Shown: positions 4,141-63,293, counted from the stretch's first letter. The stretch is 64,000 bases of DNA from an uncultured Candidatus Saccharibacteria bacterium (GCA_965230925.1 OZ246403.1:138455-202454), one strand, 5' to 3'. Translations and numbers: made by a program. Notes: generated by a model from the letters alone, not told the origin.

Positions 4141-4176
4141 TGCTTTAGAAGATAACACGATGATAAAATAAACTGA

Positions 4177-4998: not shown

Positions 4999-5745
4999 AT
5001 GATCAGCCTCACGCCCGCTAAACTTGAATTCTCGGTGTCGCCCGGCCAAAGCGTAACTAAGCTGATTACGCTTAAAAACGAGAGCGCGGAGAACCTAGTG
5101 GGGGAAGTGTTGATCGAGAACTTCGGCCCCGAGCAATATGCGCTCAATCGCTTTCTCACACCTGGCGTACGCACCTTTGCGCTTGGGGCGGGAGAAACAC
5201 GCAGCCTACCCATCACCGTCAGCTTGCCTGCCAATCAAGGTCCGGGCGGCCTCTACACCTCGGTGGTCACCAGCTTTCGCCTCGCGAGCGAGACTGTAGC
5301 CAAAGCAGAAAGTCGCTTAGCCAGCCTCGTCTTTGTAAAAGTCCCTGGCCAAGCAAAAGAAGAGGGGCAACTAACCAACTTTCAAAAACAAGAAAACTCT
5401 CTGTATCTAACTTTCAAAAACACCGGCAATGTTTATCTCAATCCATATGGCGGTGTCAAAATCAAAAATTCAATTTCTGGCGCCGAACAAATTATTTCTG
5501 TCGATCCTTGGTTCGTGCTTCCTGGGGATACTCGGATTCGCGAAATCGAAATTAAAAACTCGCTAGGCCTTGGTCGCTGGCAAGCCACCGCAGAACTAAA
5601 CAGGGGTTATGGCGACCTCATCGACACCCGCGCCATCGCCTTCTGGATCTTACCGCCAATTTGGACGATGGTGGTTGTTGGACTTGTGATTTTGGCTGTC
5701 TTGTTTGGCCTTGGTTGGAAATTCTGGCGACGTGGTAAAATTTAA
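4999..5745 (+). CDS. hypothetical beta-rich protein with C-terminal TM anchor
   Basis: Starts immediately after the TAA of the preceding ORF in the same frame; Ig-like or chaperone-like beta-strand pattern; C-terminal TM plus basic tail WKFWRRGKI. Confidence 0.5.
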   Translation: MISLTPAKLEFSVSPGQSVTKLITLKNESAENLVGEVLIENFGPEQYALNRFLTPGVRTFALGAGETRSLPITVSLPANQGPGGLYTSVVTSFRLASETVAKAESRLASLVFVKVPGQAKEEGQLTNFQKQENSLYLTFKNTGNVYLNPYGGVKIKNSISGAEQIISVDPWFVLPGDTRIREIEIKNSLGLGRWQATAELNRGYGDLIDTRAIAFWILPPIWTMVVVGLVILAVLFGLGWKFWRRGKI

Positions 5746-5748
5746 AAT

Positions 5749-6489
5749 ATGAAATGGGGCTGGGGATTAATTATTTTGACCTGCTTACTCGGCGCACAAG
5801 GGGCGGCGGCGTATGTAGCCTCGAGCAATAATTATAGAATCCAAACCGACAGCGTTAATGTGGGCGGCGGACTTTCAACTTCGACTAATTACGCTATGGA
5901 AAGCACGGCGGGGGAAATTGCGAGTGGGGAATCAAGTAGTACTAATTACAAAATCAAGGCTGGTTATCAGCAAATGCTCGTGAGTTCAATCTCAATCTCA
6001 GCGCCAAGCGATGTGAGCTTGGGTTCTATTGATGGCACCACGGGCGGCAGTGCGCTTGGCTCAACCGCTTGGACCGTGATTACCGACAACGCTGCTGGTT
6101 ACATTTTAGCCGTCCGCTCAAGCACTAATCCGGCTCTCACTTCTGGTGGAAACAGCGTTAGCAATTACACACCCGCTGGCGCCACACCTGATTACACTTG
6201 GTCGGTGGCTGCGAGTGCCAGCGAATTCGGCTTTAGTCCTGAAGGCACGCACGTGGTCCAGCGTTATCTCGACAATGGATCAAGCTGTAATGCTGGCGCA
6301 AGCAACAACACCAACACTTGCTGGGATCCATTTTCCACCTCCAACACCACCGTAGCCTCAAGCGCAAGCGCCAACTCTCCCAGCGGCACGGCCACCACCC
6401 TTAAGCTCCAAGCCGAACTCGGCGCTGACCTCGAGCCCACCGACGGCGCCTACTCAGCCACCATTATTGCCACCGCCACCGCGCAATGA
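5749..6489 (+). CDS. secreted Ser/Thr/Asn-rich protein
   Basis: Signal peptide MKWGWGLIILTCLLGAQGAAA; repeated xTNY motifs; low-complexity S/T/A-rich C-terminus. Confidence 0.5.
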   Translation: MKWGWGLIILTCLLGAQGAAAYVASSNNYRIQTDSVNVGGGLSTSTNYAMESTAGEIASGESSSTNYKIKAGYQQMLVSSISISAPSDVSLGSIDGTTGGSALGSTAWTVITDNAAGYILAVRSSTNPALTSGGNSVSNYTPAGATPDYTWSVAASASEFGFSPEGTHVVQRYLDNGSSCNAGASNNTNTCWDPFSTSNTTVASSASANSPSGTATTLKLQAELGADLEPTDGAYSATIIATATAQ

Positions 6490-8516
6490 TTAAACTCGCC
6501 TCGCTCAAAATTATCGCCGCCGCCATTCTTCTTTTAATCGTCGGCGGCATCGGGCTCAGAACCTTCGCCGCTAACGATAGTGTAAATGTGAGCCTCGAAA
6601 TTGCTTGTCCGGGAGACGACTGCGCCCCCTCAGGAGGTGGTGGCGGGCCGCCCCCACCTCCTCCGCCGCCTCCGCCACCGAGCCCGATATTGGGCTGCAC
6701 CGACTCCGATGCCACCAATTACAACGCTTCAGCCACCCAAGATGATGGTTCTTGCGTGTACCCCAGCGACGCCGTTCCAAATGTCTCTGACTTCGACGGT
6801 GAATACGACGAGGATAATGAAGAAATTGATTTAAGCTGGACCAACCCCGATTTCCCCGAATTTGCCAGTGTTCGTATTATGCGAAGCACCAGCTTTTTCC
6901 CCACTAACCCAAGCAGTGGCGACCTTGTATACACCGGTAGCGGCGAAAGTGCCGTCGACAATGATGTAGAACCGGGCACCACCTACTATTACGCCATCTT
7001 TGTTCGCAATACCAATGGCGATTATTCATCAGGCGCAGTTACGAGCGTGAATGTGCCCGAGCCAGAAGAAGAGCCACCGGAAGAAGAACCAGAGGACGAA
7101 GAACCGCCGGTTGATGAGGACGGAAACGGTATTCCTGACGATGAGGAACCGCCGGACCCCTTCGCCGATCTACCACAAGCGCCAATTGTTGACCCTCTTG
7201 TGGAAGTTCTAAACTTTGGCGACTTTATCTTCGTTCAACCAGGCGAGGGGAGGCAATTCTTCGGTAGTGGCAGTGTGCTCCGGATTAATGGCAAAAAAGA
7301 TCTGACTGTTCTCCTGGAGGCAAACAAGGTACCGGGGAATCTAAAAACCATCGCTATAACTCTGCGCGACCCAAGCGATTGGAAAAAAACTTTTTCTTTT
7401 CTCCTTAAATTAAATGAAACGGGAACAGCCTACACCGCCACCATTGCTCCGCTTGGGAGATCGGGTAATTATCCGGTTTATATTTCTATCGTCGACTTCC
7501 AAAATCAAAGTATAAAAAGAATTGAGGGGCGCCTTCTCGTGGCCGCGGCCGGAGCCGCACCAATAGCGAATATCGCAGGAAGAATCGCTTCACCTTTTGT
7601 TGTCGCATCCGGTCTTATCCTTGGTGTGGCCGAAGGATTTTCGCTTGTTGCGCATATCAAATCATTTTCTGATCTCTATTGGCTTCTCCTTCACGGCTTC
7701 AACCTCATCACCCGCTTCTTCGGCTTCCGGAAAAAGGTTAAACCTTGGGGCGTGGTCTACGACTCAGTAACCAAGCGACCGCTTGACCCAGCTTACGTGA
7801 TCGTGAAGCAATCCGACAGCGACGTAAACACAGCCATCACCGACCTCGACGGCCGCTACGGCTTTTTACTCCAATCCGGAACCTACTCTCTGATGGCAAA
7901 CAAAACCCACTATCAATTTCCCTCGGTAAAGCTCGCAGGAAGAACGAGCGATGAGCTCTACGATAATCTCTACCATGGCGGCGACTTCCAAACCCTCACT
8001 GGTGAAGTGATTAATCGCAATATTCCGCTCGACCCAATTGCCTTCGACTGGAATGAATTTGCAAAAGATAAGCAGGGCTTCTTCATTCTCCACACCAAGA
8101 AGGAGAAGCGACGCGCGCGCCTTCTCAACGGCGTTTTCATTATCGGCTTTGCCCTCTCGGCCTACAACCTCGTGTTCAACCCGAGCTGGTTAAACATTCT
8201 CGCGATCGCCTTCTATCTCGCGACGCCACTCGGCCGTCTCTGGTGGCGCCACCGCCGACCCGTCGTACAAGTGAAAAGTCTCACAAGTGGCTTGCCTTCG
8301 CCGTACGCTATCGTGAAAGCGTTTATTCCGAAAGTTAATCAACAAGTGCGTCAGGTGGTGGCGGATCAATTGGGTCGCTTCTTCCTTCTCACCCCGCCAG
8401 GGGAATATTATCTCACCGTAGAAGAAAAACAGGATGATGGCACCTACAAAAAAGTTCTGGAGACTCCTCCGCTACTTCTCTCTCGCGGTGTGCTAGATAA
8501 AAACTTAGTTTTCTAG
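6486..8516 (+). CDS. large multidomain envelope protein (signal anchor, G5-P12 linker, FN3-like domain, acidic PE-rich linker, TM segments, CarboxypepD_reg-like modules)
   Basis: ATGA overlap with the upstream gene; poly-Pro encoded by mixed codons; FN3-like consensus DLSWTNP...TYYYAIFVRNTNGDYSS; CarbopepD-reg-like VYDSVTKRPLDPAYVIVKQ..DLDGRYGF. Confidence 0.6.
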   Translation: MIKLASLKIIAAAILLLIVGGIGLRTFAANDSVNVSLEIACPGDDCAPSGGGGGPPPPPPPPPPPSPILGCTDSDATNYNASATQDDGSCVYPSDAVPNVSDFDGEYDEDNEEIDLSWTNPDFPEFASVRIMRSTSFFPTNPSSGDLVYTGSGESAVDNDVEPGTTYYYAIFVRNTNGDYSSGAVTSVNVPEPEEEPPEEEPEDEEPPVDEDGNGIPDDEEPPDPFADLPQAPIVDPLVEVLNFGDFIFVQPGEGRQFFGSGSVLRINGKKDLTVLLEANKVPGNLKTIAITLRDPSDWKKTFSFLLKLNETGTAYTATIAPLGRSGNYPVYISIVDFQNQSIKRIEGRLLVAAAGAAPIANIAGRIASPFVVASGLILGVAEGFSLVAHIKSFSDLYWLLLHGFNLITRFFGFRKKVKPWGVVYDSVTKRPLDPAYVIVKQSDSDVNTAITDLDGRYGFLLQSGTYSLMANKTHYQFPSVKLAGRTSDELYDNLYHGGDFQTLTGEVINRNIPLDPIAFDWNEFAKDKQGFFILHTKKEKRRARLLNGVFIIGFALSAYNLVFNPSWLNILAIAFYLATPLGRLWWRHRRPVVQVKSLTSGLPSPYAIVKAFIPKVNQQVRQVVADQLGRFFLLTPPGEYYLTVEEKQDDGTYKKVLETPPLLLSRGVLDKNLVF

Positions 8517-8635: not shown

Positions 8636-8686
8636 GGATCCCAACTTGCCGCGCCCGTTTTTGCAAGTTGGGATCCTTTTATTTTG
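8636..8686 (+). terminator. strong rho-independent terminator (14-bp stem ggatcccaacttgc/gcaagttgggatcc + T-run)
   Basis: Perfect inverted repeat followed by TTTTATTTT. Confidence 0.75.
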
Positions 8687-8773
8687 CTCAACCAACCTTG
8701 ACTTTTTTTAATAAAGTGATAGTTATTTAAATAGTTTCGTTTACGTTTTAGAGGACCTGTTAGGAGGTGAACC

Positions 8774-9319
8774 TTGAAATACTTGGCAGTCATAAGTTCC
8801 GTTATCGCCACATTGGCGATTTTGGCCTTCGGGGTACAAATCTGGAAAACCAACACCCCGCAAAATGTTGCTAGCTGGTTAATGTGGCTAATTCTCAACA
8901 CGATATTATTGTTCGCCTCGATTTCCGCAGGCAATAAGAAGTCATGGATGTTGAGTCTGGGCTACGTAATTGGAGGAGCAGCAGGAACAGCCGCGTTGCT
9001 TTTCCGAGGTCAATGGCATTGGGGAAAAACAGAAACAGTTTGTGCTGTTGGCGCAGCAGTTAGCATGATGGTGTGGAAAAAACTAGGTCCCAAAAAGGGC
9101 TTGGTCGTTAGTGCGATTGCAATCACCATGGCAGGAATACCCGCTCTGAGCGAAGCGTGGCAAACCCACAATCGTGAAAGCTGGTGGCTTTGGACAATCA
9201 TTGCTTTCTGCTGCCTCCTCACCACCATCGGCGCAGAGCGGTGGACTCTGCAAGATCGCTTGTTCCCTATTGTCAGTATGATTTTCAATGGCACGATGGC
9301 CGTCCTTGTTCTTTTGTAA
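8774..9319 (+). CDS. polytopic membrane protein, paralog 1 (possible PQ-loop/PnuC-like fold)
   Basis: TTG start with strong SD AGGAGGT; about 6 predicted TM helices; TPQ motif; homologous to the downstream ORF. Confidence 0.55.
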   Translation: MKYLAVISSVIATLAILAFGVQIWKTNTPQNVASWLMWLILNTILLFASISAGNKKSWMLSLGYVIGGAAGTAALLFRGQWHWGKTETVCAVGAAVSMMVWKKLGPKKGLVVSAIAITMAGIPALSEAWQTHNRESWWLWTIIAFCCLLTTIGAERWTLQDRLFPIVSMIFNGTMAVLVLL

Positions 9320-9324
9320 AACAA

Positions 9325-9372
9325 CCTGTTCTCGTACGCAGAAAAACCTGCTGAGGACAGGTTTTTCTTTTT
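9325..9372 (+). terminator. rho-independent terminator
   Basis: cctgttctc...gaggacagg hairpin + TTTTTCTTTTT. Confidence 0.65.
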
Positions 9373-9511
9373 AGTTATTGACTATTTGAAAGCCTTGACT
9401 TATTCCTTATAGAATGCTAGTCTGTTGGCAGTAAAAGATCGTTGATTTAAGCCAAAAGTGCGGGCTTTTCTAATACGCACTTAAACCATAAAGAGGAAGG
9501 AGGGCTGACAA

Positions 9512-10093
9512 TTGTCAGTAAAAGATATTCTTTCGGCAGCTGCCGGATTACTGTTCCTTGCAGGTTATGTTCCATATATCATTAGTATCTTTCGGGGTAA
9601 CAAGCCGGCAAAGGCCTCCTGGTTAATCTGGGTTAGCCTCGACACCATTAGTTTGGTCGCCATGTATTACGAGAAAACGGTAAACGGCCAAATTCTTGGT
9701 ACAGTAGCAGGAGCCTGGGTAGTTACGGCCCTCGCGATGAAGTACGGCAAACCGGGGTGGAGCAACCTTGATAAGTTCTGCTTGGTTGGGGCAGTCGTGG
9801 GAATCGCTTTGTGGCAATACTTCGATAGTCCAGTCTTGGGTTTGGTTACCAGTCAGGCGGTCACTTTTTTGGGGTCAGTTCCAACATTCGTTTCAGCTTG
9901 GAAAGATCCCTCGCAAGAAGACCGTTTTGCCTGGACTCTCTACTGGCTATCTTGTGTTGCTGCAATGTTTGCAATTCCCTCACCGACAATTGCCCACGTT
10001 ACTCAACCTACAACCTTCTTTATCATCGAGAGTGTCATGATGTACTTACTCTTTGTCAGAAAAAGAGTGAGAATCATTCCTGTTACCGATTAA
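9512..10093 (+). CDS. polytopic membrane protein, paralog 2
   Basis: TTG start with strong SD AGGAAGGAGGG; alignable to paralog 1 (ASWL.W..L.T, SAW..WT motifs). Confidence 0.55.
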   Translation: MSVKDILSAAAGLLFLAGYVPYIISIFRGNKPAKASWLIWVSLDTISLVAMYYEKTVNGQILGTVAGAWVVTALAMKYGKPGWSNLDKFCLVGAVVGIALWQYFDSPVLGLVTSQAVTFLGSVPTFVSAWKDPSQEDRFAWTLYWLSCVAAMFAIPSPTIAHVTQPTTFFIIESVMMYLLFVRKRVRIIPVTD

Positions 10094-10120
10094 GATCGCC
10101 CTCTAAAAATCGATCTGTGA

Positions 10121-10163
10121 GCCCGCTGTCAGTTCCAATGGAACGCGGCGGGCTTTTTCTTTT
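10121..10163 (+). terminator. rho-independent terminator
   Basis: gcccgc...gcgggc hairpin + TTTTTCTTTT. Confidence 0.65.
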
Positions 10164-10247
10164 CTTGGTTTTTATGATAAAAAGATTAGCTGTTGGATAG
10201 AACCTTCCCAAACCATTTTTTCTATAACACGAAAGGAGTCGACGTAA

Positions 10248-10438
10248 TGACAGACTATGACGGTTCCGACACCAGACGTCCCTACGAATGGCCATACATT
10301 GATGACGCAAGGCGAAACAGAAACGGAAGGGTTGAACTCGGGGCGCGACAACGAAAGACGAAAAGCTTTCTTGCCAGCCTTGTCGTGATCGGCGCAGTCG
10401 TTATCGTGTTTTGGAAAATATTTTGGCCTTCGGACTAA
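10248..10438 (+). CDS. small tail-anchored membrane protein (63 aa)
   Basis: ATG with SD AAAGGAG 9 nt upstream; C-terminal TM LASLVVIGAVVIVFW; the listed ORF begins earlier at 10193. Confidence 0.35.
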
Positions 10439-10465
10439 AGGAGGAAAATGGGTTGATAGTTAAGG

Positions 10466-10500
10466 CCTGCCTCGGGGCGGGCTTTATCTTTGTCTTTTTC
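10466..10500 (+). terminator. rho-independent terminator carrying the 22-nt tail CGGGCTTTATCTTTGTCTTTTT
   Basis: Hairpin cctgcc-tcgg-ggcggg + T-rich tail; the tail is identical to the one at 11686-11707. Confidence 0.6.
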
Positions 10501-10611
10501 AGTATGGAACTTGACGAAATCTATTTAATAAGCTAGTTTAATAACCAGTTCGGGCCTTGGCCTGAAAGAGTATGTCCTTTGTTGTTTTGTTGCTATTAGG
10601 GAGAAAAAGCA

Positions 10612-11619
10612 ATGGCAAAGAAAAGGAAGGCCTCCAAGCGTATGGGGGTCAAGGAAACGGGGGCGAGATCGCCCAGGAAAAGATCACCACAAAAGAGAAT
10701 GAGCACGGAAACAGATTCGGTAATTCCGGTCACCGTAGTGAAAACTCCTTCAACACCCCAAGTTGACGTGAAAGAAATGGCAAGGGAAACCGGAATTCCA
10801 CTCGACGCCATTAAGTTGGCGCTCGGTTTGCCGACTGACATCTCATTTTCTGATCAGATGTACTTTGGGGACCTCAAACACCTCGGTCCTCTGTGTCGAG
10901 GTCGGGTCCTCATCCAAACGAATCACTTCGCGGCAGAAGCCATCGACCCCGACAAGCTCGAGCGGGTCGTCCTTCCTCTTACACACCAACTGCACAAGCT
11001 AGCCTGTGCCGAATTGGAAAAGGCCAACACCGTTGGATGCAGCAGGGAACGTTGGCGAGAAATCGCCGACGCTCTCGAACCAGGGTCATCGACCTGGTTC
11101 AAAGCTCAAGCGAGAGTAGAAGACATGGGCTTCGAAGAAATTGTCAACGAAACCAATCTTCGCAATTTGATTACAACTCTGAATGGGGGCAAGATCCCCA
11201 TCGGCAGTGGGTTATGGAGCAGGGCAGTTGATGTCTTCCGGGGCTTACTCGAAACAGACTTGCGACGAGCTGGCACGAATGAAAACGTCGAATGGCTACT
11301 CGCACAACGCCAGGGGTTGGAACACCTTGTGTCATTGGATTTCTTTTACAATTGCATGGAGGAATGGTTCCGTGTCACCGACGATGCGGCTGCCCTCGCT
11401 GAAAAACTAGCGGGCAGCGACATCAACCAAAGAAGTCTCGCCTGGAAGGTGGGATCGCAAAAACTCAGTGGAATACTCAGTGATGAGATGAAAACGAACG
11501 ACGAGATTCCACTCGAACGACTCGTCGCAATCTATCAGATGGCTCCTGCAGGAAGCGAAGTCAAGCAGGAAGCGATCCTGAGAATGTCCGAACTCTTCCA
11601 AACATCGGCAGCGGCGTAA
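10612..11619 (+). CDS. hypothetical protein with Lys/Arg-rich N-terminus
   Basis: SD AGGGAG 8 nt upstream of the ATG; TTGACG -35-like box upstream; all-helical body without recognisable motifs. Confidence 0.5.
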   Translation: MAKKRKASKRMGVKETGARSPRKRSPQKRMSTETDSVIPVTVVKTPSTPQVDVKEMARETGIPLDAIKLALGLPTDISFSDQMYFGDLKHLGPLCRGRVLIQTNHFAAEAIDPDKLERVVLPLTHQLHKLACAELEKANTVGCSRERWREIADALEPGSSTWFKAQARVEDMGFEEIVNETNLRNLITTLNGGKIPIGSGLWSRAVDVFRGLLETDLRRAGTNENVEWLLAQRQGLEHLVSLDFFYNCMEEWFRVTDDAAALAEKLAGSDINQRSLAWKVGSQKLSGILSDEMKTNDEIPLERLVAIYQMAPAGSEVKQEAILRMSELFQTSAAA

Positions 11620-11657: not shown

Positions 11658-11707
11658 GCCCGTCGTTTGTTCACCAGAACAGCGACGGGCTTTATCTTTG
11701 TCTTTTT
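11658..11707 (+). terminator. rho-independent terminator, second copy of the 22-nt tail
   Basis: 8-bp stem gcccgtcg/cgacgggc + the same tail CGGGCTTTATCTTTGTCTTTTT. Confidence 0.65.
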
Positions 11708-11735
11708 GGGTAAAAGAGACTAGAATATCGAAACT

Positions 11736-13049
11736 ATGGCAAGTAGTGGAAAATTTGTAATAAAGGGCTCAGCAAATAGCCGGAATTTGACGGGTGAGGT
11801 GAAGGTGAGCGGGGCGAAAAATGACGCCTTGCCGGCCTTTGCTTCGGCCTTATTGTTCAAAGACGAATTGAACTTGAGTAATGTGCCGGCGATTTCTGAC
11901 ATCGACGCGATGGCCAAACTCTTGAGTGGTCTGGGTGCCACAGTGGAAAGTGAGGGTGGAGAAAGTGGAAGGCCTGCCTTGCCGGCAGGCAGGTGGAAAG
12001 TAGTGTTGGGAAAAAAAATTAGTTCTACCCTCGATCCCGAGATTGCCAAGCGCTTCCGTGGTTCTATTACACTTCTTGGCCCAGTGCTCGCCCGGACACA
12101 TGAAGTAGTTTTTCCACACCCGGGCGGCTGCGTCATTGGCGAGCGGCCAATTGATATTTTCCTCAAAGGCTTCGAGGCGCTTGGCGCCACCGTAACGGAG
12201 CACGATAATCGCTATCACCTCAAGGCACCGGAAGGTCTACATGGTGCAGAGTTTTTCTTTAAATATCAAAGTGTCACCGCCACAGAAACCTTGATGATGG
12301 CCGCGGTTCTCGCGAAGGGAAAAACCGTTTTGAAAAACGCTGCCATGGAACCTGAGGTCATCGCCCTCGGCGAATTCTTGATCCAAGCGGGAGCAAAAAT
12401 TACAGGACTCGGCAGTAATACGATTGAAATTGTGGGTGGCGAATTATTGTCGGGTCAAAACCTTGTTCGCGAAATTATTCCCGATCGCATTGAGGCGGGA
12501 AGCTTCGTGATTCTCGGTGCCCTAGCGGGTAAAAACGTCGCAGTTAAAAATTTAAACGCTAATCATCTCCAATCTCTCACCAACACGCTGACCGAAATGG
12601 GCGTGCAGTTAGAAATTAAACCTGACCAAATTACTATTTTGGGCCGAGCAGAAAAATTGAAGCCGGTGAATCTCCGCACTCATGAATATCCGGGTTTTCC
12701 CACCGATCTCCAGGCACCAATGGCCGTGCTCCTCACTCAAGCGAGTGGCCGAAGCACCATCTTTGAAACTATTTTTGAAGGTCGACTCGGCTATTTAGAA
12801 ACGCTCAAAATGATGGGTGCGCAAGCCTGGATTCATGACCCTCATCAAGCTACGGTTGAAGGACCAACCCCGCTAAGTGGTCAAGAAGTGGTGAGTCCTG
12901 ACCTCCGCGCTGGTCTGGCCTATATTCTCGCGGGTATTGTCGCCAACGGTCAAACGATTGTACACAATGTGCATTACGTGGAGCGGGGATACGAAAAAAT
13001 TGAAGAAAAACTCGCTGGTCTTGGCGTTCAGATTGTTAAAGAAGGGTAA
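11736..13049 (+). CDS. murA: UDP-N-acetylglucosamine 1-carboxyvinyltransferase
   Basis: MurA motifs VSGAKNDALP and C-terminal EPT fold; 437 aa. Confidence 0.9.
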   Translation: MASSGKFVIKGSANSRNLTGEVKVSGAKNDALPAFASALLFKDELNLSNVPAISDIDAMAKLLSGLGATVESEGGESGRPALPAGRWKVVLGKKISSTLDPEIAKRFRGSITLLGPVLARTHEVVFPHPGGCVIGERPIDIFLKGFEALGATVTEHDNRYHLKAPEGLHGAEFFFKYQSVTATETLMMAAVLAKGKTVLKNAAMEPEVIALGEFLIQAGAKITGLGSNTIEIVGGELLSGQNLVREIIPDRIEAGSFVILGALAGKNVAVKNLNANHLQSLTNTLTEMGVQLEIKPDQITILGRAEKLKPVNLRTHEYPGFPTDLQAPMAVLLTQASGRSTIFETIFEGRLGYLETLKMMGAQAWIHDPHQATVEGPTPLSGQEVVSPDLRAGLAYILAGIVANGQTIVHNVHYVERGYEKIEEKLAGLGVQIVKEG

Positions 13050-14063
13050 ATGTCGATTTTCACCAGACAATTGGGCATTGACCTCGGGACAGCGAACACC
13101 TTGGTCTTCATGCCGGGCAAGGGAATTGTGCTCAATGAGCCGTCAGTCGTTGCCATTTCTCTCTTCGATAATAAAATTGTGGCGGTAGGCCTGGAAGCGA
13201 AGGACATGGTAGGCAAAACGCCTGACACGATTAAAGCCTATCGGCCGATGAGAGATGGAGTGATTGCCGATTATCGTGTGACGGAAGCCATGTTGCGCTA
13301 TTACATTAACAAGGCGCTCGGAAAATTTAATATTTGGAAGCCAGAAGTAATGATCTCCGTCCCAGCTGGCGTCACAAGCACCGAGCGGCGCGCGGTGGTG
13401 GAGGCGGCGATTAAGGCGGGAGCGAAAAACGCCTTCGTGGTGAAGGAACCAATTCTTGCGGCCATTGGCGCCGGTGTCCCAATTCAAGAAGCGCGAGGAC
13501 ACATGATTGTAGATATTGGCGGCGGAACCACGGATGTGGCCGTAATTTCTCTCGGCGGTATTGTGGCCGCAACTTCCGTGAAGCATGCGGGCAATAAGCT
13601 CGACCAAGCGATTGTGGACTATATTAAAAAGACTTTTAACCTCGCGATTGGCGACAAAACCGCGGAAGAAGTGAAAATAAAAATTGGCTCAGCCGTGCCG
13701 ATTGAAGATGAGCTCGTGCACACGATTAAAGGCCGCGACTTAATGACAGGCTTACCGCGCTTTGCCGAAGTGAAGACGAATGAAATTACAAAAGCAATTG
13801 AGCCAGAACTAAAAGAAATTATTAAAGCGATTCGCACCGTCTTCCAAGAAACGCCGCCCGAGCTCGCGGCAGATATTATTGACCACAGCATTATCATGAG
13901 TGGCGGTTCATCACTCTTGCGCAATCTTCCTGAACTCGTGTATCGCCGCACGGGGGTGAAGGCCACGGTGGCCGACGACGCTCTCTTTTGCGTAGTAAAG
14001 GGAACCGGCGTGGCTCTTGATCACCTCGGGACGTATAAAAAGAGTGTGCTCGCCAAGCGCTAA
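13050..14063 (+). CDS. mreB: rod-shape determining actin homolog MreB (copy 1)
   Basis: GIDLGTANTLVF phosphate-1 motif; MreB/Hsp70 actin-like fold throughout. Confidence 0.9.
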   Translation: MSIFTRQLGIDLGTANTLVFMPGKGIVLNEPSVVAISLFDNKIVAVGLEAKDMVGKTPDTIKAYRPMRDGVIADYRVTEAMLRYYINKALGKFNIWKPEVMISVPAGVTSTERRAVVEAAIKAGAKNAFVVKEPILAAIGAGVPIQEARGHMIVDIGGGTTDVAVISLGGIVAATSVKHAGNKLDQAIVDYIKKTFNLAIGDKTAEEVKIKIGSAVPIEDELVHTIKGRDLMTGLPRFAEVKTNEITKAIEPELKEIIKAIRTVFQETPPELAADIIDHSIIMSGGSSLLRNLPELVYRRTGVKATVADDALFCVVKGTGVALDHLGTYKKSVLAKR

Positions 14064-14681
14064 ATGAAACTCGAACATCATGCGTATTTGATAATTGGGG
14101 AAGCGGGGGAATTGATTGCTGATTTAAAAAATTCGCATCCGAGCGCGCGGCATCATAAATTTGAGAGGCTGGGCATTGACGATAGCCGCGCACTTGCCGC
14201 TGATCAAAGTCAAACGGCCTGGAGTGGCGAAATTAAGCTCTTTATTCTCGAAATTGTTGATGCTACAGTTGAGGCCCAAAACGCTCTTTTGAAAATGTTG
14301 GAGGAGCCAACAGCTGGAACTCACTTTATTCTCATCGTACCCTCGGCCGAGATTTTACTCTCAACAGTACGCTCACGATTACAAAAGATATCACCACCCC
14401 CTGCCTACCGGCAGGCAGGCCAACCCTCTTCCCAAAGGGGAGGGGAACACGCTCAAGAATTCCTGAAAATGATTCCCGCCAAGCGGCTTGAGTGGCTTAA
14501 GAACACTGAATTACCAAGTAATTTCCTCGACCAACTTGAGCAAGTGATAGCAGAAAAAAAAGACTTAACCGCTTACGCCGAACTCGCCTTGGTACGAAAA
14601 AAGTGGCACATACCAGGAGCGAGTCATAAATTACTTTTAGAACATTTGGCTGTTACTTTACCGGTTTTTGTATTAAGATAG
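14064..14681 (+). CDS. holB: DNA polymerase III delta-prime-like clamp-loader subunit (short)
   Basis: HAYLIIG with degenerate P-loop; LLKMLEEP..THFILI..STVRSR box typical of delta-prime. Confidence 0.65.
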   Translation: MKLEHHAYLIIGEAGELIADLKNSHPSARHHKFERLGIDDSRALAADQSQTAWSGEIKLFILEIVDATVEAQNALLKMLEEPTAGTHFILIVPSAEILLSTVRSRLQKISPPPAYRQAGQPSSQRGGEHAQEFLKMIPAKRLEWLKNTELPSNFLDQLEQVIAEKKDLTAYAELALVRKKWHIPGASHKLLLEHLAVTLPVFVLR

Positions 14682-14686
14682 CGGAT

Positions 14687-15241
14687 ATGGCATACGATTT
14701 TGGTAGTTTTAAGAGCAAAGTGAAAGAGGTCGAGACCTGGTTTAGTAAAGAACTTTCCTCGGTGCGGACGGGTCGGGCCACGCCCGCGATTCTTGATGGA
14801 ATTACGGTCAAGGCTTATGGCGGCGAGCGCACACCCGTGTCTCATCTCGCGAGCATTGCGGTCGAAGATGCGCGGACTTTGCGCGTGACCCCGTGGGACA
14901 AGGCTCAGATTAAAGAAATTGACGCCGCCATTGCCACCGCCAATTTGGGGGTCTCGGTCGCGGCTGACGGCACTGGCCTGCGGGTAATTTTTCCTTCGCT
15001 CACAGAAGAAAACCGCGGCACGCTGGCGAAGGTCGTGAGCAAAAAACTTGAAGAAGCTAGAATTAGTTTGCGCCGTGAGCGTGAAGAAGTGTGGAATGAT
15101 ATTCAGGCGAAGGAAAAGGAAGGGAAGTTAAGTGAGGACGAGAAATTTAAAGGTAAAACAGAACTTCAGAAACTGGTTGATGAGGGAAATGCAATGCTAG
15201 ATAAAATTGCGACCAGTAAAGAAACCGAGATTCGCGGCTAA
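14687..15241 (+). CDS. frr: ribosome recycling factor
   Basis: Full-length RRF similarity (VRTGRA...PWDK). Confidence 0.9.
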   Translation: MAYDFGSFKSKVKEVETWFSKELSSVRTGRATPAILDGITVKAYGGERTPVSHLASIAVEDARTLRVTPWDKAQIKEIDAAIATANLGVSVAADGTGLRVIFPSLTEENRGTLAKVVSKKLEEARISLRREREEVWNDIQAKEKEGKLSEDEKFKGKTELQKLVDEGNAMLDKIATSKETEIRG

Positions 15242-15247
15242 ATTATT

Positions 15248-16369
15248 ATGAATATTATTATCTTTCTAATCATTTTGGGTTTACTCGTCTTTACCCATGA
15301 ATTGGGACACTTTTTGGCCGCCAAGAAGTCGGGGATTCGCGTGGATGAATTTGGCCTCGGCTTCCCACCGCGCGTGTGGGGAGTAAAGCGCGGCGAAACT
15401 ATTTATTCGATCAACTGGCTACCGTTTGGCGGCTTCGTAAAAATCTTTGGCGAAAATCCGGATGAAGAATCAACTTCGGGCCCCGATTCGGGCCGAAGCA
15501 TGATTCATAAGCCAAAACATATTCAAGCAATGGTCTTGGTCGCTGGAGTTTTCTTCAACTTCCTTTTTGCTTGGATCTTGATCGCGCTAGGGTTCGCCAC
15601 GGTTGGCATTCCTACAGCAGAAAGTAATTTTGGTAATAATTATCCCCTCGAGAATGCCGCACTGGTGGTGACTGGCGTTCTCCCTGGTTCACCCGCCGAG
15701 ATGGCCGGCTTAGAAGTCGGTGATAAAGTTTTAAAAGTTAGCAATACTGACGGCACAAAGGTTCTCACCGAACCGAGCGCCGAAGAAACGCGACAATTCA
15801 TTGCGGGTTCAAACGGCAAGATAATAATGAGCTTGATCCGCCAACCTGAGCAAAGCACACAGGAAATCACGGTTGAACCCATCACCGGCCTCATTGCTGG
15901 CGAGCCAAACAAGTTCGCTGTTGGCATTGGCCTCGATCGGGCCGGGATTCTTAAATTACCTTTACACCTAGCTATCTGGGAAGGCGGGAGGGCGACAATT
16001 AACCTCACGGTGGCCACGGTGCTCGGCTTCGGCCAACTTATTTCTGAACTCATTAAAGGCGAGGGTAATTTACTCGCGCAAGTGACCGGGCCAGTCGGAC
16101 TCGTAGGTCTCGTAGGTGATGCCAGTCGGCTCGGGATTGCTTACTTACTCTCATTCACTGCGCTTATTTCCATTAACCTTGCCGTGCTCAATCTCGTCCC
16201 ATTCCCGGCGCTTGATGGCGGCCGCTTACTCTTCCTCTTGATTGAGAAAATTAAAGGCTCACCCATCACGCCCAAGATCGCCAATGCCGTTAATCTTGCC
16301 GGTTTTGCCCTCCTTCTCCTTCTCATGCTCGCCGTGACCTATAAAGATATTGTTCGACTCGTTTCTTAA
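15248..16369 (+). CDS. rseP: RIP zinc metalloprotease RseP (site-2 protease) with PDZ domain
   Basis: HELGH zinc motif in first TM region, PDZ domain, LDGG motif. Confidence 0.85.
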   Translation: MNIIIFLIILGLLVFTHELGHFLAAKKSGIRVDEFGLGFPPRVWGVKRGETIYSINWLPFGGFVKIFGENPDEESTSGPDSGRSMIHKPKHIQAMVLVAGVFFNFLFAWILIALGFATVGIPTAESNFGNNYPLENAALVVTGVLPGSPAEMAGLEVGDKVLKVSNTDGTKVLTEPSAEETRQFIAGSNGKIIMSLIRQPEQSTQEITVEPITGLIAGEPNKFAVGIGLDRAGILKLPLHLAIWEGGRATINLTVATVLGFGQLISELIKGEGNLLAQVTGPVGLVGLVGDASRLGIAYLLSFTALISINLAVLNLVPFPALDGGRLLFLLIEKIKGSPITPKIANAVNLAGFALLLLLMLAVTYKDIVRLVS

Positions 16370-23281: not shown

Positions 23282-23315
23282 AACCCGTCACGTGACAGTG
23301 ACGGGTTATTTGATT
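23282..23315. terminator. bidirectional hairpin terminator between lysS and the minus-strand ORF
   Basis: aacccgtcac-gtgaca-gtgacgggtt flanked by A-run and T-run. Confidence 0.6.
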
Positions 23316-23656
23316 GTGGCCCCACATTCGGTGCAGGCTCCGGAAACGTTACCAGTGAGACTGTAGCCGCACTTTAGGCATAAACCACTTACCTCCCGAT
23401 AATATGCCTCATATCTCTTAAAATCACGCCTTTTCATAAATGCACGGACGACAAAGGAAGCTGTCATAGCAAGACCAAAAGAGACAGCAAGAAAGGCATT
23501 TTTACGCGGGACATTCCCACCCAGAAAGCGACAGCTAATGAAAACACTTAAAAACATGAAAAACGTCGAGGTGGCTATACACATAGCCATATCAAACCGA
23601 ATCCACCAAAGATGGGTCTTAAACTGTTTTATCGTGTTATCCCTAAAACTCTTCAT
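23306..23656 (-). CDS. small membrane protein with C-terminal zinc ribbon
   Basis: Two TM helices and CLKCGYS...CTECG. Confidence 0.45.
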   Translation of the reverse strand: MKSFRDNTIKQFKTHLWWIRFDMAMCIATSTFFMFLSVFISCRFLGGNVPRKNAFLAVSFGLAMTASFVVRAFMKRRDFKRYEAYYREVSGLCLKCGYSLTGNVSGACTECGATIK

Positions 23657-28563: not shown

Positions 28564-29058
28564 GTGAGTGTTTACTGGAGCAGAGAATTAGAACAACGGT
28601 TAGACCGAGCAAGACACTATACCCACCTATGGTGGGTGGGACGAGAAGTACTCCGGCGAATGCCAACCCCGGTCGTGGCTGTTTCTGGTCCCATCTCAAC
28701 CGGAGGCTTTGGTTCGATTGATGAAAATTGTCGAGCTTTTGAGTTGGCAATAAGGTATCTTGAAGGGCGGGGGCATATTGTTTTCAACCCGCTACCGTTT
28801 CAAGACAAGATGATTGAGTTCATCAAAAAATTCCAGATAAACAATCCTGGCGTGTATGATATGAGGCTCTTGGAACGATTTTACGGACCATTCTTTGATT
28901 CAGGTCTTGTTGGTGCCGTGTACTTCTTGCCCGGATGGAGAAAATCAACGGGAGCCTCATGGGAACGAGAGCGAGTGAAATTACGAAAAATCCCAATGTT
29001 CAGGTTTCCATCAAGGGCATTCAGCACAATCAAGGACCGAATTCAACGAAGCGCCTAA
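28564..29058 (+). CDS. DUF4406-like (nucleoside 2-deoxyribosyltransferase-like) domain protein
   Basis: GTG start with SD AAAGGAGG; motifs VAVSGPISTGG...NCRAFELA..GHIVFNP and YFLPGWRKSTGASWERE match the family pattern as I remember it. Confidence 0.5.
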   Translation: MSVYWSRELEQRLDRARHYTHLWWVGREVLRRMPTPVVAVSGPISTGGFGSIDENCRAFELAIRYLEGRGHIVFNPLPFQDKMIEFIKKFQINNPGVYDMRLLERFYGPFFDSGLVGAVYFLPGWRKSTGASWERERVKLRKIPMFRFPSRAFSTIKDRIQRSA

Positions 29059-35568: not shown

Positions 35569-35769
35569 TCAGATTCCGCTACCATCCGTGTGCATGGGTG
35601 GCGGGGTTTGTGGTTTAGTCCGAAAAGTTTTCCGGACAATCACTCGACCGCATATTGCACAAGATGTATCGTTCGGTTGCTTTTGTCTCGGTTGCGGGCA
35701 TTCGCAAGATGATCCACCTCGCGCCTGCGACTTATCTGATGTCCTGGCCATTGATTCGTCGTAACTCAT
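35569..35769 (-). CDS. small zinc-ribbon-like protein (66 aa)
   Basis: Strong SD GGGAGG 5 nt upstream of the ATG; CxC...CxxC; its own terminator downstream; palindromic motif upstream. Confidence 0.4.
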   Translation of the reverse strand: MSYDESMARTSDKSQARGGSSCECPQPRQKQPNDTSCAICGRVIVRKTFRTKPQTPPPMHTDGSGI

Positions 35770-37092: not shown

Positions 37093-37302
37093 TCACTTCA
37101 CGAAACCCAAATGGAACCCTATTGGTGGAATCAACGCCACCAAAGCGCAAGCGCTCCAGCAACTTGAAGAACCAAAGGATCGTCCGTCCGTGGCCCAAGC
37201 AAGCAAAGGGGTAATTATCCCGAGGGTAACGAGGAACAACATGGCGTAAACCGCAACGCGACAACCGTTCCACTCTCCCTCTTTCTTTTTCTTTTTTCCC
37301 AC
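37093..37302 (-). CDS. small Lys-rich single-TM protein (about 69 aa)
   Basis: GTG start with SD GGGAGG 7 nt upstream; KKKKK then hydrophobic helix; terminator right after the stop. Confidence 0.3.
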   Translation of the reverse strand: MGKKKKKEGEWNGCRVAVYAMLFLVTLGIITPLLAWATDGRSFGSSSCWSACALVALIPPIGFHLGFVK

Positions 37303-40694: not shown

Positions 40695-40976
40695 CTACTT
40701 CCGTTCCTCTTTCACCCATTTCATGTCGCCTGTAAAATTGCGAAGGTCTTCATCGTCGTCTGACAAGAAGTGGGGTTTGAGCCATACGGCAAACTTCCCT
40801 TTGGAGTCTTCTGGCACTTCTGTCCAAAAGACACTAAGCACTTCGCAGGCACAGTGAGACTCATTGACAATTAAATTCATTTTCATTCCCACGGCAGGAA
40901 TGAAGTTTATTTCAACACCATGACGAGCGAAGACACCCCTAGTACCCAGATACACAACAAACTTAAAGGTATACAC
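40695..40976 (-). CDS. hypothetical protein (93 aa) immediately upstream of dnaB
   Basis: ORF only; no motif recognised. Confidence 0.35.
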   Translation of the reverse strand: MYTFKFVVYLGTRGVFARHGVEINFIPAVGMKMNLIVNESHCACEVLSVFWTEVPEDSKGKFAVWLKPHFLSDDDEDLRNFTGDMKWVKEERK

Positions 40977-45369: not shown

Positions 45370-45371
45370 AA

Positions 45372-45776
45372 TTGGTTATAATTTACCCGATGAGTCTAGC
45401 AAACTGGCAAGAAAAGTTCAAGTCTCAGTCGCTAACTGTCGCGGTGAGCCTCATTACAATCCTCGGCTTTACCTTTGGCTTCGGCCTAGGCCGACTTTCT
45501 AAAATTGAAGAGGGGAGATCCCCGATTAAAATTGAGCAAGCCACCGCAACTGACACCTCTAGCCATCAAATTTCAGCCACAGGGTCCAAGCCCTTAGAAC
45601 TTAGTAAAACGACTGGGGGCAAACTGGTGGCTTCAAGGAATGGCAAAAAATATTATCTGCCGTGGTGCGGTGGAGTAGACCGAATCAAACCAGAAAACTT
45701 AATTAGCTTCGCTTCCGCCGCTGAGGCGCGGGCGAGGGGATATACACCAGCAGCTAATTGTCCTGGTCTCGAGTAG
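45372..45776 (+). CDS. membrane-anchored protein with Ada-like metal-binding domain
   Basis: TM anchor then C-terminal [10 protein letters not shown]...[23 protein letters not shown] resembling the Ada_Zn_binding pattern. Confidence 0.4.
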
Positions 45777-51353: not shown

Positions 51354-51833
51354 ATGCCGAAGCTAATGGAGTGGTTCCGAAACGAGATGGAAGAGATCGG
51401 AAGTAAGGACATCACCCCCCCCAACCATGAGATACAAGCTGGTGAAGTGGTGATCGGACAACTTACCGACCCGGAACTGAAAAAAATGTTTACCCTGAAC
51501 AGCGCCCTGAAGGATGGGGTAACGCAAGTGTTGCGAGAAATCCAGCACCAGATCATCGATCATGAACGAGGTTCGGAAAGCCCAGAAGATCACGAGCGAC
51601 GCTGCCCCGCGTGTTCACAAGCCCACAAAAACTCGCGCACTGTCGGCAGGGCCAAGTTTGTCGACGTTCTGTTTTGGGAAAGCGTCCGACAGGAATTAGA
51701 TGATGAGGGACTCAAAAAACTGATGCGCATTGAGATGAGGGGTGGGACCATCGGCCTTACGAAAAAATGGGAAATCGTGGCCGTTCCTCCGGAACCGAGA
51801 CCATCCCTCATTGAACTGCTCGGCCTCCGTTAA
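51354..51833 (+). CDS. hypothetical protein (159 aa), orphan gene inserted in opposite orientation within the murG-ftsW-mraY block
   Basis: Strong SD AAGGAAGGAG 7 nt before the ATG; own terminator; no recognisable motif. Confidence 0.45.
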   Translation: MPKLMEWFRNEMEEIGSKDITPPNHEIQAGEVVIGQLTDPELKKMFTLNSALKDGVTQVLREIQHQIIDHERGSESPEDHERRCPACSQAHKNSRTVGRAKFVDVLFWESVRQELDDEGLKKLMRIEMRGGTIGLTKKWEIVAVPPEPRPSLIELLGLR

Positions 51834-62294: not shown

Positions 62295-62459
62295 GTGGTG
62301 AAGATTTCAGGGAAGCTTATCTTAACGGTAATAGCAACAATCGCCATCGGCCTGCTGACCGCGCAAGGGGTTCGAGAGATTATTTTGGACCAGCTTTACG
62401 AGCACCACTGCTTCGATGATGAAGGGTTCGAAGTGGTCGTGGTGCTAGCGACTAATTAG
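62295..62459 (+). CDS. small single-TM protein (about 54 aa)
   Basis: GTG start with SD AAGGGAG; hydrophobic helix LILTVIATIAIGLL; strong terminator follows. Confidence 0.3.
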   Translation: MVKISGKLILTVIATIAIGLLTAQGVREIILDQLYEHHCFDDEGFEVVVVLATN

Positions 62460-62639: not shown

Positions 62640-63293
62640 ATGTTTCCTAAACTGTTTAGTGTTCTCCTGGTCTCGATCACCAGCTTAGCAAGTCTAAGCG
62701 GGAAGGAAGCGGTCGAGAAAAACGAAAGGACCACACCTCAAAAACTTGGAGGCATCGAACTACCCTTCGTCGGCGAAGGTTCCCTCGGTATGGTTGAGAA
62801 CGAGGATGGATCACGCGAGTGGATCATCGGAGTAAAAGTCAGCGAAGCAGAAAAGGCGGAGCTGGCTTGGTTCTTTGATCCTGGCGAAGGAACTCTCGAC
62901 GGCAACGGGCTCCCCAAGGAAGAGTTCGTTTTCGCGGGAGGGTTAGATATCGCCGTTGATGAAGATGGGACACTAACCATCGGCATACTCAACGAGGAAA
63001 CGAACGCCTTCCACGAACTCCGAACCAGTTTCTGGTCAGACACTGGTGACGGAGGATACCGAGTGACCGACAACGAGCAAGGTCAGGTGTTAGTAACAAC
63101 ACCAAGTGGCCCAATCGAAAACAATTCGGAGCTCTTCGCCGACAGTGGCGAGAGTTGTGCGGGTGGCAGCTGTTCATGCGAAGGAAAATGCAAGGCGTGT
63201 TGCCCGTCTGGCACAACGGCATATTGCAATTGTTCCGGGTCCGGCACATGCAGGTGCCCCGCGAATAAGGAGATCAACACCCCCTCACAGTAG
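62640..63293 (+). CDS. secreted protein with C-terminal cysteine-rich tail (12 Cys in about 35 aa)
   Basis: SD GGGAGG 7 nt before the ATG; signal peptide MFPKLFSVLLVSITSLASLSG; tail SCAGGSCSCEGKCKACCPSGTTAYCNCSGSGTCRCP. Confidence 0.5.
   Translation: MFPKLFSVLLVSITSLASLSGKEAVEKNERTTPQKLGGIELPFVGEGSLGMVENEDGSREWIIGVKVSEAEKAELAWFFDPGEGTLDGNGLPKEEFVFAGGLDIAVDEDGTLTIGILNEETNAFHELRTSFWSDTGDGGYRVTDNEQGQVLVTTPSGPIENNSELFADSGESCAGGSCSCEGKCKACCPSGTTAYCNCSGSGTCRCPANKEINTPSQ

Follow-up and report, generated by a model that had tools for sequence, protein, structure and literature searches.

Bacterial genomes rich in leaderless genes, and others poor in Shine-Dalgarno (SD) sequences, are already well known (PMC6028130). 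In group C of the GeneMarkS-2 classification, the leaderless-rich genomes that include most Actinobacteria and Deinococcus-Thermus, a Pribnow box lies 6-8 nt before the start codon of the first genes of operons, and these genes are mixed with SD-led genes whose motifs sit at similar distances (PMC6028130). Group B, to which the Bacteroidota belong, carries one non-SD motif before all genes, including those internal to operons (PMC6028130). That work discusses no genome from the Candidate Phyla Radiation (CPR), and loss of the anti-SD sequence has been reported in a Parcubacteria subgroup only (PMC9297842). In the literature searched, we found no analysis of leaderless or SD usage by gene class for Saccharibacteria, Patescibacteria or the CPR. 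Here we examine a 64,000-nt stretch of DNA from an uncultured Candidatus Saccharibacteria bacterium (GCA_965230925.1 OZ246403.1:138455-202454; bases 29,686-93,685 of a 100-kb Logan contig, SRR12822863), referred to below as the window. Strong SD sequences in the window are confined to twelve accessory genes, four of which are clustered at 8774-11619, and the conserved core genes start without them. This split is real, and it is stronger than was stated in the original prediction, which had been made from the sequence alone.

The window shares features with both of the described groups. Like group C, it shows start-proximal -10 boxes with the same 7-nt peak and with matching -35 and TGn elements. 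In group C, however, the remaining internal or leadered genes generally bear an SD, whereas the internal and coupled core genes of the window have none, and the SD is limited to stand-alone accessory cassettes. The likeness to group B lies in a core that is nearly all SD-less, in a small minority of genes with a strong SD, and in a canonical anti-SD tail, which on the CPR side is seen in another contig only (locus L025, below). A few group B genes, such as rpsU, keep an SD. The SD-led minority of the window consists instead of accessory genes and ORFans rather than ribosomal genes, and the signal before its SD-less genes is a -10 box with a -35 partner, unlike the single motif of group B.

The window (GC about 49%) holds a compact housekeeping set that includes def/fmt, murA, two copies of mreB, mreC, PBP2, frr, rseP, several aminoacyl-tRNA synthetase (aaRS) genes, an mraZ-rsmH-ftsI-mur cluster, dnaB, recR and ribosomal protein genes. 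Gene calls and Pfam matches were taken from exact-protein look-ups. Positions -20 to -1 of the 66 called genes were folded (duplexfold) against the anti-SD ACCUCCUUU; an SD was counted as strong at -7.9 kcal/mol or below with a spacing of 3-9 nt, and 6,056 other ATG, GTG or TTG positions served as the control. The 66 duplex energies form a bimodal distribution that is empty between -7.9 and -6.8 kcal/mol. A strong SD is present at ten of these genes, among them dacA with its doubtful TTG start (below), as compared with 1.3% of the control start codons (binomial p = 2e-8). A separate scan of all GGAGG-type motifs brought up small open reading frames (ORFs) that gene callers had mostly missed. 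Without dacA, the SD-led total is nine larger genes, with duplex energies of -7.9 to -12.8 kcal/mol, and three small ORFs from the motif scan, with GGGAGG(T) or GGGAG; in all twelve, the SD is purine-rich, complements the anti-SD and lies 4-8 nt before the start, and such sites are commoner than chance. A strong SD at working distance is found in none of the 45 Pfam-annotated (core) genes and in 12 of the 25 others (p = 5e-7). Several SDs are very long. The motif AGAAAGGAGG(T) occurs three times and is the perfect complement of a canonical CCUCCUUUCU-3' tail; the SDs range up to AGAAAGGAGGT, which is complementary to a canonical ...CACCUCCUUUCU-3' end of 16S rRNA. Inside genes, GGAGG is not depleted (100 observed, 88 expected).

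The original prediction spoke of seven accessory genes with textbook SDs, but its list actually held nine. Every site on that list is present, those at 51354 and 62640 just as described. Some details need amendment. The SD given for 10248 is AAAGGAG before an ATG at 10247, the start given as 62295 is a GTG at 62298, the minus strand carries both the 35769 and the 37302 small ORF, and the site at 10612 (ATG start) is only GGGAG, the weakest of the set. The list was also incomplete, as genes starting at 23656 (minus strand), 28564 (GTG) and 40976 (minus strand, GTG) had been missed. Our scoring bears out the claimed lack of an SD at murA, frr, rseP, greA, lysS, mraZ, rplU and cysS. Several of the listed genes had been given TTG or GTG starts; among the nine larger SD-led genes, four have a non-ATG start, as compared with 6 of 58 other genes (p = 0.02), an excess that fits the strict AUG dependence of leaderless initiation. 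A -10 hexamer 6-7 nt upstream of the ATG had been proposed for at least four genes. It is present at gdh (TACAAT, 6 nt), the LivJ-like gene (TATACT, 7 nt) and a 47-aa (amino-acid) ORF (TATAAT, 6 nt), but at the P-type ATPase gene the sequence is ATCAAT, which matches three of six positions and lacks the key A2. Two candidate SDs among the core genes were rejected. The AAGGAG of dacA belongs to a doubtful TTG start, and a downstream in-frame ATG at 54935 opens a textbook signal peptide and has no SD. The GGGGGTA of an aaRS gene is an artefact with zero spacing to the ATG.

The core genes have signals of another kind, and these reach well beyond the four genes named in the original prediction. 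Of the 57 non-SD genes, 19 have a TANNNT hexamer placed 5-9 nt upstream of the start codon, most often at 7 nt; the corresponding figures are 4.4% for control ATGs (p = 2e-12) and none for the nine larger SD-led genes tested. Of these hexamers, 47% have a -35 match of at least 4/6 at 16-18 nt spacing, against 12% of random TANNNT sites (p = 3e-6), and seven of the 19 carry a TGn extension. Because -35 partners and TGn extensions are enriched, we read the hexamers as promoters and not as a non-SD ribosome-binding motif. Divergent gene pairs point the same way. At 4141-4176 and 45370-45389 in the window, and at 13817-13837 in contig L007, the start codons are 36, 20 and 21 nt apart. Their -10 boxes stand back to back or overlap, so that a leader would not fit in between. 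In these pairs each -35 element falls within the opposite gene. A further 24 non-SD genes start between -38 and +13 nt from the preceding stop codon, several at TAAATG or ATGA junctions, and can be classed as coupled. The pattern continues just upstream of the window, where 11 more genes, including hpf, dnaK, dnaJ, grpE, rpsI and rplM, have no strong SD.

Among the GTDB species representatives, the MurA of the window has one close relative, 71% identical and encoded by an uncultured Candidatus Saccharibacteria metagenome-assembled genome (L006), which places the window in a Saccharibacteria (TM7, CPR/Patescibacteria) genome. In L006, the 16 orthologues of non-SD genes (five of them Pfam-less) are likewise without an SD, all scoring above -3.5 kcal/mol. 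The combination of a -10 box at 6-9 nt and no SD is retained at murA (TAGAAT, 6 nt, ATG), aaRS, frr and the 638-, 273- and 246-aa genes, as is the divergent arrangement at 4141-4176. Core starts align at residue 1 with their orthologues, with an offset of 0 in 11 of 16.

The SD-led genes behave differently in this comparison, which for synteny was limited to the 8.7-11.7 kb cluster. All four SD-led genes of the cluster are absent from the syntenic position in the relative, and all 16 neighbouring non-SD genes have counterparts there (0/4 versus 16/16; Fisher p = 2e-4). The slot between the 669-aa gene and murA is occupied in the relative by one unrelated 162-aa gene, which is itself preceded by GGAGG, 7 nt from a GTG. 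Between holB and frr the relative carries, in addition, a 2.5-kb island (12940-15450) that the window lacks. Encoded there are a RelE-type toxin/antitoxin pair and two proteins of 243 and 283 aa, the latter ParB-like; the island genes are leadered and have weaker SD-like sites (GGAGA, GGGGGTG). In a survey of metagenomes, the murA slot was recovered at five loci, one of which duplicates the relative (99.94%), the others being short or distant.

The cluster at 8774-11619 thus resembles a genomic island or hot spot, being made of four small same-strand genes between conserved genes in a slot whose content differs in the relative. As in such islands, repeats recur at its junctions. A terminator tail of the form CGGGCTTT.TCTTT follows three cassettes in the window, and a 27-nt direct repeat (CGGGCTTTATCTTTGTCTTTTT..., 93% identical) flanks the cassette of the 335-aa ORFan, its distal copy carrying the -35 element of murA. 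A third, shorter copy of this repeat lies at 10144-10162, downstream of the 193-aa gene. On the strength of these sequences, the repeats hint at serial insertion at one terminator/promoter site. An integron-like array was considered and rejected. Here every cassette comes with a promoter and a terminator of its own, in contrast to the promoterless cassettes of integrons; moreover, we found no attC-like sites, integron integrase or transposase in the window (integrases being absent from its Pfam calls), and the hairpins are plain terminators.

The same DNA, 100% identical, occurs in another sample, where the gene caller gave 123 aa instead of 181 and 306 aa instead of 335. Strain variation or decay of accessory genes was rejected as the cause: since the shorter ORFs sit on identical DNA, they reflect differences in start choice only. 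The caller also replaced the SD-led 66-aa ORF in that sample (L008) with a 61-aa ORF at 35400-35585 (minus strand) that is probably spurious. Start calling is unreliable in such genomes.

All twelve SD-led genes are monocistronic and have one layout: a recognisable -35/-10 promoter, a leader of about 30-110 nt, the SD, and an ORF of 53-335 aa. For the 193-aa gene, the promoter position implies a leader of about 90 nt. A hairpin and T-run end ten of the twelve; the 93-aa gene runs into dnaB, and the hairpin after the DUF4406 gene has no T-run. The terminator of the 69-aa ORF overlaps the promoter of the leaderless-type gdh, and the 53-aa ORF is called as a gene in contig L005. The leaders show no significant structure (folding z -1.1 to +1.4), and a riboswitch search of Rfam, with cut-offs at both the gathering threshold and E <= 0.5, returned only a tRNA and one sub-threshold chance match.

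The encoded proteins are mostly without a family assignment. Only one of the twelve, the DUF4406 protein, passes a Pfam threshold, and the set has no meaningful match in PHROGs, NCBIfam or PADLOC beyond weak PHROGs matches for that same protein. For the 181-aa protein, Pfam, PHROGs, PADLOC and NCBIfam gave no family match. The 335-aa protein has no homologue in 5.8 billion sequences or 1.84 billion representatives, its sole match being its own shorter call on the identical contig. A simple hydropathy scan places transmembrane (TM) or signal segments in seven of the twelve proteins; the 116-aa protein combines two TM segments with a zinc-ribbon-like C-terminus. Cysteine makes up 2.0% of residues in the SD-led set as compared with 0.3% in the core, and several of the proteins are Cys-rich. 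Viral contigs held no match for the TM family, 335-aa, 217-aa or DUF4406 proteins, and a phage collection gave none; in a plasmid collection, the single hit was a weak one from Burkholderia to the TM family (24.8% identity over 61%).

Codon choice separates the two sets. Of the two comparisons proposed with the original prediction, that of codon usage succeeded, synonymous choice distinguishing SD-led from core genes with an area under the curve of 0.97. The mean fit to core codon usage is -0.056 for SD-led genes, +0.082 for core genes and +0.016 for non-SD hypothetical genes, on a scale where uniform usage would score -0.106. The fit is negative in all twelve SD-led genes, each with P <= 0.021 against length-matched resampling, although usage in the 93-aa and 159-aa genes is nearly neutral. 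Relative synonymous codon usage in the SD-led set as compared with the core is 0.59 versus 2.56 for Arg CGC, 1.19 versus 0.28 for Arg AGG, 1.50 versus 0.85 for Ile ATC, 1.14 versus 0.46 for Ala GCA, and 0.88 versus 1.71 for Val GTG. Variable genes of the relative are biased in the same direction. This contrast fits recent arrival of the SD-led genes, and it would also fit weak expression in the absence of translational selection.

The 193-aa protein belongs to a CPR-wide family. Its 181-aa neighbour is a paralogue (27% identity, E = 2e-15 by BLASTP). The search with the 193-aa protein gave 240 homologues, 55-66% identical and with matching N-termini, the named ones being from Harrison-, Moran-, Staskawicz-, Veblen- and Nomurabacteria; apart from the Burkholderia plasmid match, the family is so far found in CPR genomes. 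BLASTP detects an internal repeat, and the seven TM helices fall into a 3+1+3 arrangement. An AlphaFold (AF2) model built from 36 sequences has seven helices and a pLDDT (predicted local distance difference test) of 92.5, and in the PDB Foldseek ranks cystinosin, the KDEL receptor and SWEET as the best matches (probability 0.99-1.0, TM-score 0.5-0.63). These proteins share a 7-TM (3+1+3) fold with an internal 3-TM duplication. Given the confident seven-helix model and these matches, the 193-aa protein is predicted to be a transporter of the PQ-loop/SWEET fold, and its 181-aa paralogue would share the fold by homology. Sequence identity is 10-14%, and neither protein matches the PQ-loop (PF04193) or MtN3 families of Pfam even at E <= 1.

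Six other CPR loci were picked through their TM homologue. The TM gene is strongly SD-led in six of seven genomes, i.e., the window and five of the six other loci; in locus L011 the site is weaker (GGGG, -7.6 kcal/mol), and in L025 the gene is SD-led provided that it starts, as in the window, at a TTG, here lying in frame 9 nt upstream of the annotated ATG. In all six loci the gene is monocistronic, and its neighbours in several of these genomes include an integrase, restriction-modification genes, Terminase_2 and LAGLIDADG. The same split appears here as in the window: with the TM gene by which each locus was selected left out of the count, a strong SD precedes 1 of 43 Pfam genes and 11 of 32 Pfam-less genes (p = 2e-4). 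The Parcubacteria-type genomes with the closest TM homologues also have SD-less core genes. The window and the flanks within reach contain no rRNA gene. Further, locus L025, a Veblenbacteria-type metagenome contig, contains a complete 16S gene (5635-7143) ending in GGATCACCTCCTTTCT; it lies directly upstream of the SD-led TM homologue, and genes for a tRNA and a GIY-YIG endonuclease come after it. In at least one CPR genome, therefore, an intact anti-SD is combined with a core that is SD-less.

The TM family is also more alike across CPR classes than the core proteins are. Between the window and a Moranbacteria contig, identity is 40% for MurA, 46% for MreB and 35% for the P-type ATPase, as compared with 62% for the TM protein; the 62-66% identity to Parcubacteria-type homologues in distant CPR classes would, however, also be explained by strong conservation. 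In two AT-rich hosts the gene stands out in GC content at third codon positions (GC3): 0.49 in L021, where native genes have 0.14-0.42, and 0.67 in L014, where the SD-led neighbour has 0.62 and native genes 0.23-0.38. In L024 and L025 its composition is native and the SD is retained. In L025, both GC3 and codon fit look native and the SD is nonetheless kept, which speaks for selection on it rather than inertia; the SD thus seems to be maintained beyond mere inheritance.

The explanation that we favor for these observations, with reasonable but not high confidence, is that the organism has two routes of translation initiation, set by transcript architecture, which in turn follows gene history. 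The conserved genes lie in tight operons, and the first and many internal genes would be served by sigma-70-type promoters with a -10 box that stops 5-9 nt short of the AUG. Owing to that spacing, the mRNA would begin at the start codon or within a few bases of it, and initiation would be leaderless. Downstream genes of the operons, which start near or overlapping the preceding stop codon, would be reached by termination-reinitiation or coupling. Neither route would need an SD, and none is present. The second class, about 12 genes in 64 kb, would be expressed from a promoter of its own through an unstructured leader of about 30-110 nt to a very strong SD, a short ORF that often begins with GTG or TTG, and a terminator. 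These cassette genes vary between relatives, lack the core codon bias and code mostly for membrane, secreted or Cys-rich proteins, and at least one of their families appears to move between CPR classes. A leadered stand-alone gene would be translated here only if it brought a strong SD with it.

How far acquisition enters into this picture can be judged from both directions. The original prediction had offered two readings of the strong-SD set, acquired from a different genomic background or specially translated. For acquisition speak the absence of the cluster genes from the relative, the presence there of another SD-led gene in the same slot, the atypical codons, the similarity of the TM family across CPR classes and its high GC3 in two AT-rich hosts. 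Against it stand the equal GC3 of the two sets in the window and the retention of the SD where composition is native (L025). Because no SD-rich donor was found and because the split is shared across CPR loci, the idea is only partly right; the genes look to have come from an accessory pool held in common, not from an SD-rich donor lineage. Since the SD accompanies native composition in L025 and nearly neutral codons in the 93- and 159-aa genes, it tracks transcript architecture at least equally with recent arrival. The reading as a specially translated set is compatible with the data.

Both readings can also be put as rivals to the two-route explanation. The SDs might be nothing but relics of horizontal transfer, carried over from recent donors that use an SD on all genes, and would then say nothing about translation here. 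The atypical codon use of all twelve genes, the absence of the cluster from the relative, the GC3-rich copies in L014 and L021 and the 27-nt repeat around the ORFan cassette would all be expected on that account. Yet every CPR locus with a homologue also has an SD-less core, so that no SD-rich donor is at hand; a strong SD persists at the TM gene in six of seven genomes, native-looking L025 included (L011 having GGGG at -7.6 kcal/mol); and decay would have eroded the SDs, which are 9-11 nt long and have optimal spacing. We therefore consider a pure relic unlikely. Alternatively, the SD could mark a functional class irrespective of origin, mostly small membrane or secreted proteins that need a 30S-binding route whose output would be high or tied to conditions such as host contact, and which would be separate from bulk leaderless or coupled translation. 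The conservation of the SD in the TM family over seven genomes (strong in six, the weaker GGGG in L011), the TM or signal segments in seven of twelve proteins, several of them Cys-rich, and the extreme strength of the SDs in a genome otherwise devoid of them would suit such a class. It is nonetheless quite improbable, as the set includes soluble ORFans (335, 159 and 93 aa) and the nucleotide-metabolism-like DUF4406 protein, the leaders show no regulatory structure, and the codon and synteny signals would be left unexplained.

It could also be argued that the split is made by annotation, with core starts miscalled and the SD-led ORFs being chance ORFs favored by a gene caller that rewards an SD. 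Start calls do differ on identical DNA (181 versus 123 aa, 335 versus 306 aa), and the SD of dacA hinges on a doubtful TTG. But core starts match those of the relative at residue 1 (offset 0 for 11 of 16), divergent gaps of 20-36 nt permit no alternative start, the SD-led ORFs reach 335 codons and are flanked by promoters and terminators, and the 193-aa protein folds confidently and agrees at its N-terminus with 240 homologues. An artefact of this kind is hardly credible.

Several points weigh against the two-route explanation that we favor. Fourteen non-SD genes fall outside both the leaderless-type and the coupled class, and the cmk-like gene, folD, aspS, scpA, mraZ and the P-type ATPase gene have a long upstream gap with neither an SD nor a well-placed -10 box. 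To account for such genes there must be a third route, leadered but independent of the SD. Moderate SD-like sites occur at a few core genes, such as trpS/tyrS with GGGAG 6 nt upstream (-6.8 kcal/mol). The core first genes are taken to be leaderless from the position of a motif. On the side of gene history, GC3, the other comparison proposed with the original prediction, does not separate the sets in the window (0.520 versus 0.526); the codon contrast could reflect low expression or absent translational selection rather than foreign origin; and non-SD hypothetical genes are intermediate in codon fit. The window contains no integrase, transposase or phage gene to accompany its cassettes, and the viral, phage and plasmid collections searched yielded no vector; island-type neighbours (integrase, restriction-modification genes, Terminase_2) appear only in other genomes. 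The TM gene of L025 is compositionally native but SD-led. Finally, the six comparison loci form a small, non-random sample, having been picked by way of the TM homologue.

Whether the split holds throughout the CPR is a matter on which we can be only tentative. It is possible, though doubtful, that a vertically inherited, essentially SD-free core using leaderless or coupled starts is general in these bacteria, and that an SD-dependent cassette pool circulates between CPR classes. If this were true, the anti-SD of the reduced CPR ribosomes would be kept largely for accessory genes, a strong SD would be the expression passport of incoming genes, and the 7-TM PQ-loop-like transporter would be the clearest marker family of the pool. 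Such a partition would bear on why the anti-SD survives in lineages that barely use SDs. The CPR comprises a large share of bacterial diversity, with pared-down ribosomes and nearly all members uncultured, and its translation starts are hardly described. A clean partition would let accessory genes or new arrivals be marked by a simple sequence feature in CPR genomes whose GC content is uninformative, and it would improve start-codon calling. It would also guide the design of constructs for tractable Saccharibacteria, either with a -10 box 7 nt from the ATG or with AGAAAGGAGG. Further, a widespread and well-folded 7-TM family, predicted to be a transporter, is flagged here in organisms that live on imported host metabolites.

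Table 1. Features of the window that bear on transcription and translation starts (positions counted from its first letter)
Feature	Coordinates	Strand	Details
36-nt gap between divergent start codons	4141..4176	.	back-to-back -10 boxes TATCTT and TAAAAT
Terminator of upstream conserved operon	8636..8685	+	inverted repeat GGATCCCAACTTGC/GCAAGTTGGGATCC, then TTTTATTTT
Putative promoter of 181-aa gene	8698..8770	+	-35 TTGACT 8698-8703, weak -10 candidates 8720-8737, short leader
SD AGGAGGTGA of 181-aa gene	8762-8770	+	duplex -11.5 kcal/mol
181-aa membrane protein, TTG start, SD-led	8774..9319	+	paralogue of 193-aa protein
Intrinsic terminator, 181-aa gene	9340..9368	+	11-bp stem, then T-run
Promoter, 193-aa gene	9386..9415	+	TTGAAA, 18-nt spacer, TAGAAT; 10/12 consensus matches
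SD GAAGGAGGG of 193-aa gene	9496..9504	+	7 nt to TTG; -12.8 kcal/mol
193-aa 7-TM protein, TTG start, SD-led	9512..10093	+	predicted PQ-loop/SWEET/cystinosin/KDEL-receptor-like fold
Terminator, 193-aa gene	10119..10162	+	member of thrice-repeated tail motif CGGGCTTT.TCTTT
SD (10232-10238) and 63-aa single-pass membrane protein	10232..10438	+	AAAGGAG, ATG 10247; -8.5 kcal/mol
Orphan SD with 2-codon mini-ORF	10439-10456	+	AGGAGGAAAATGGGTTGA; directly 3' of 63-aa gene stop codon
Terminator, then copy 1 of 27-nt direct repeat	10461-10486; 10478-10504	+	repeat/hairpin analysis
Putative promoter, 335-aa gene	10511..10603	+	-35 TTGACG, 17-nt spacer, TAGTTT; leader about 70 nt
Weak SD, 335-aa gene	10598-10603	+	AGGGAG; -7.9 kcal/mol
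335-aa soluble ORFan, ATG start, SD-led	10612..11619	+	no homologues
Terminator of 335-aa gene and copy 2 of 27-nt direct repeat (11686-11712)	11658..11712	+	repeat analysis
murA, leaderless-type start, no SD	11698..13049	+	-35 TTGTCT, 17-nt spacer, TAGAAT, 9 nt, ATG
116-aa gene	23306..23656	-	SD AGAAAGGAGGT, 6 nt, ATG; -12.6 kcal/mol
164-aa DUF4406 protein	28564..29058	+	SD AGAAAGGAGGA, GTG; kin to nucleoside deoxyribosyltransferases
66-aa Cys-rich ORF	35569..35769	-	GGGAGGT, 5 nt, ATG; own terminator
69-aa ORF, two TM segments	37093..37302	-	GGGAGG, 7 nt, GTG; promoter TTGACG/TAATCT
93-aa gene	40695..40976	-	SD AGAAAGGGAGGA, GTG; 25 nt upstream of dnaB
20-nt gap, divergent rpmA / 128-aa gene	45370..45389	.	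single TTATAAT region serves both directions
159-aa gene	51354..51833	+	SD AAGGAAGGAG, 7 nt, ATG; monocistronic, own terminator
53-aa ORF	62298..62459	+	GGGAG, 7 nt, GTG; TTGACA, 17-nt spacer, TAATTT; own terminator
217-aa secreted protein, Cys-rich tail, SD-led	62640..63293	+	GGGAGGA, 5 nt, ATG

Some further observations concern individual sites. Besides the orphan SD listed in Table 1, a perfect orphan SD, AAGGAGGTGA, follows the stop codon of the 217-aa gene at 63296-63305, with no start codon at working distance; both orphan SDs immediately precede terminators. The cmk-like gene (58400-58580, minus strand) is a leadered core gene without a recognisable initiation signal. In its leader of about 110 nt, an SD-like sequence (GAGAGGAGGTGCGT...ACGCA) lies within a hairpin, and there is none at the GTG start.

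Beside tRNA-Glu(CTC) (29190-29262), the stretch at 29000-31600 has a GC content of 0.41-0.42 as compared with about 0.49. Its genes, for a 273-aa protein and the LivJ-like protein, have leaderless-type -10 boxes instead of SDs, and the stretch may break the rule by which atypical composition is accompanied by an SD. The two MreB paralogues differ in their relation to the single MreB of the Moranbacteria contig, the one after murA (13050-14063) being 63% identical to it and the one before mreC (17604-18656) 46%. Lastly, the five-gene cluster at 2224-8516 (638, 273, 248, 246 and 676 aa) is SD-less and has counterparts of 34-79% identity in the relative. Its proteins show just weak CarboxypepD_reg matches, and it is probably a lineage-specific surface or envelope system.

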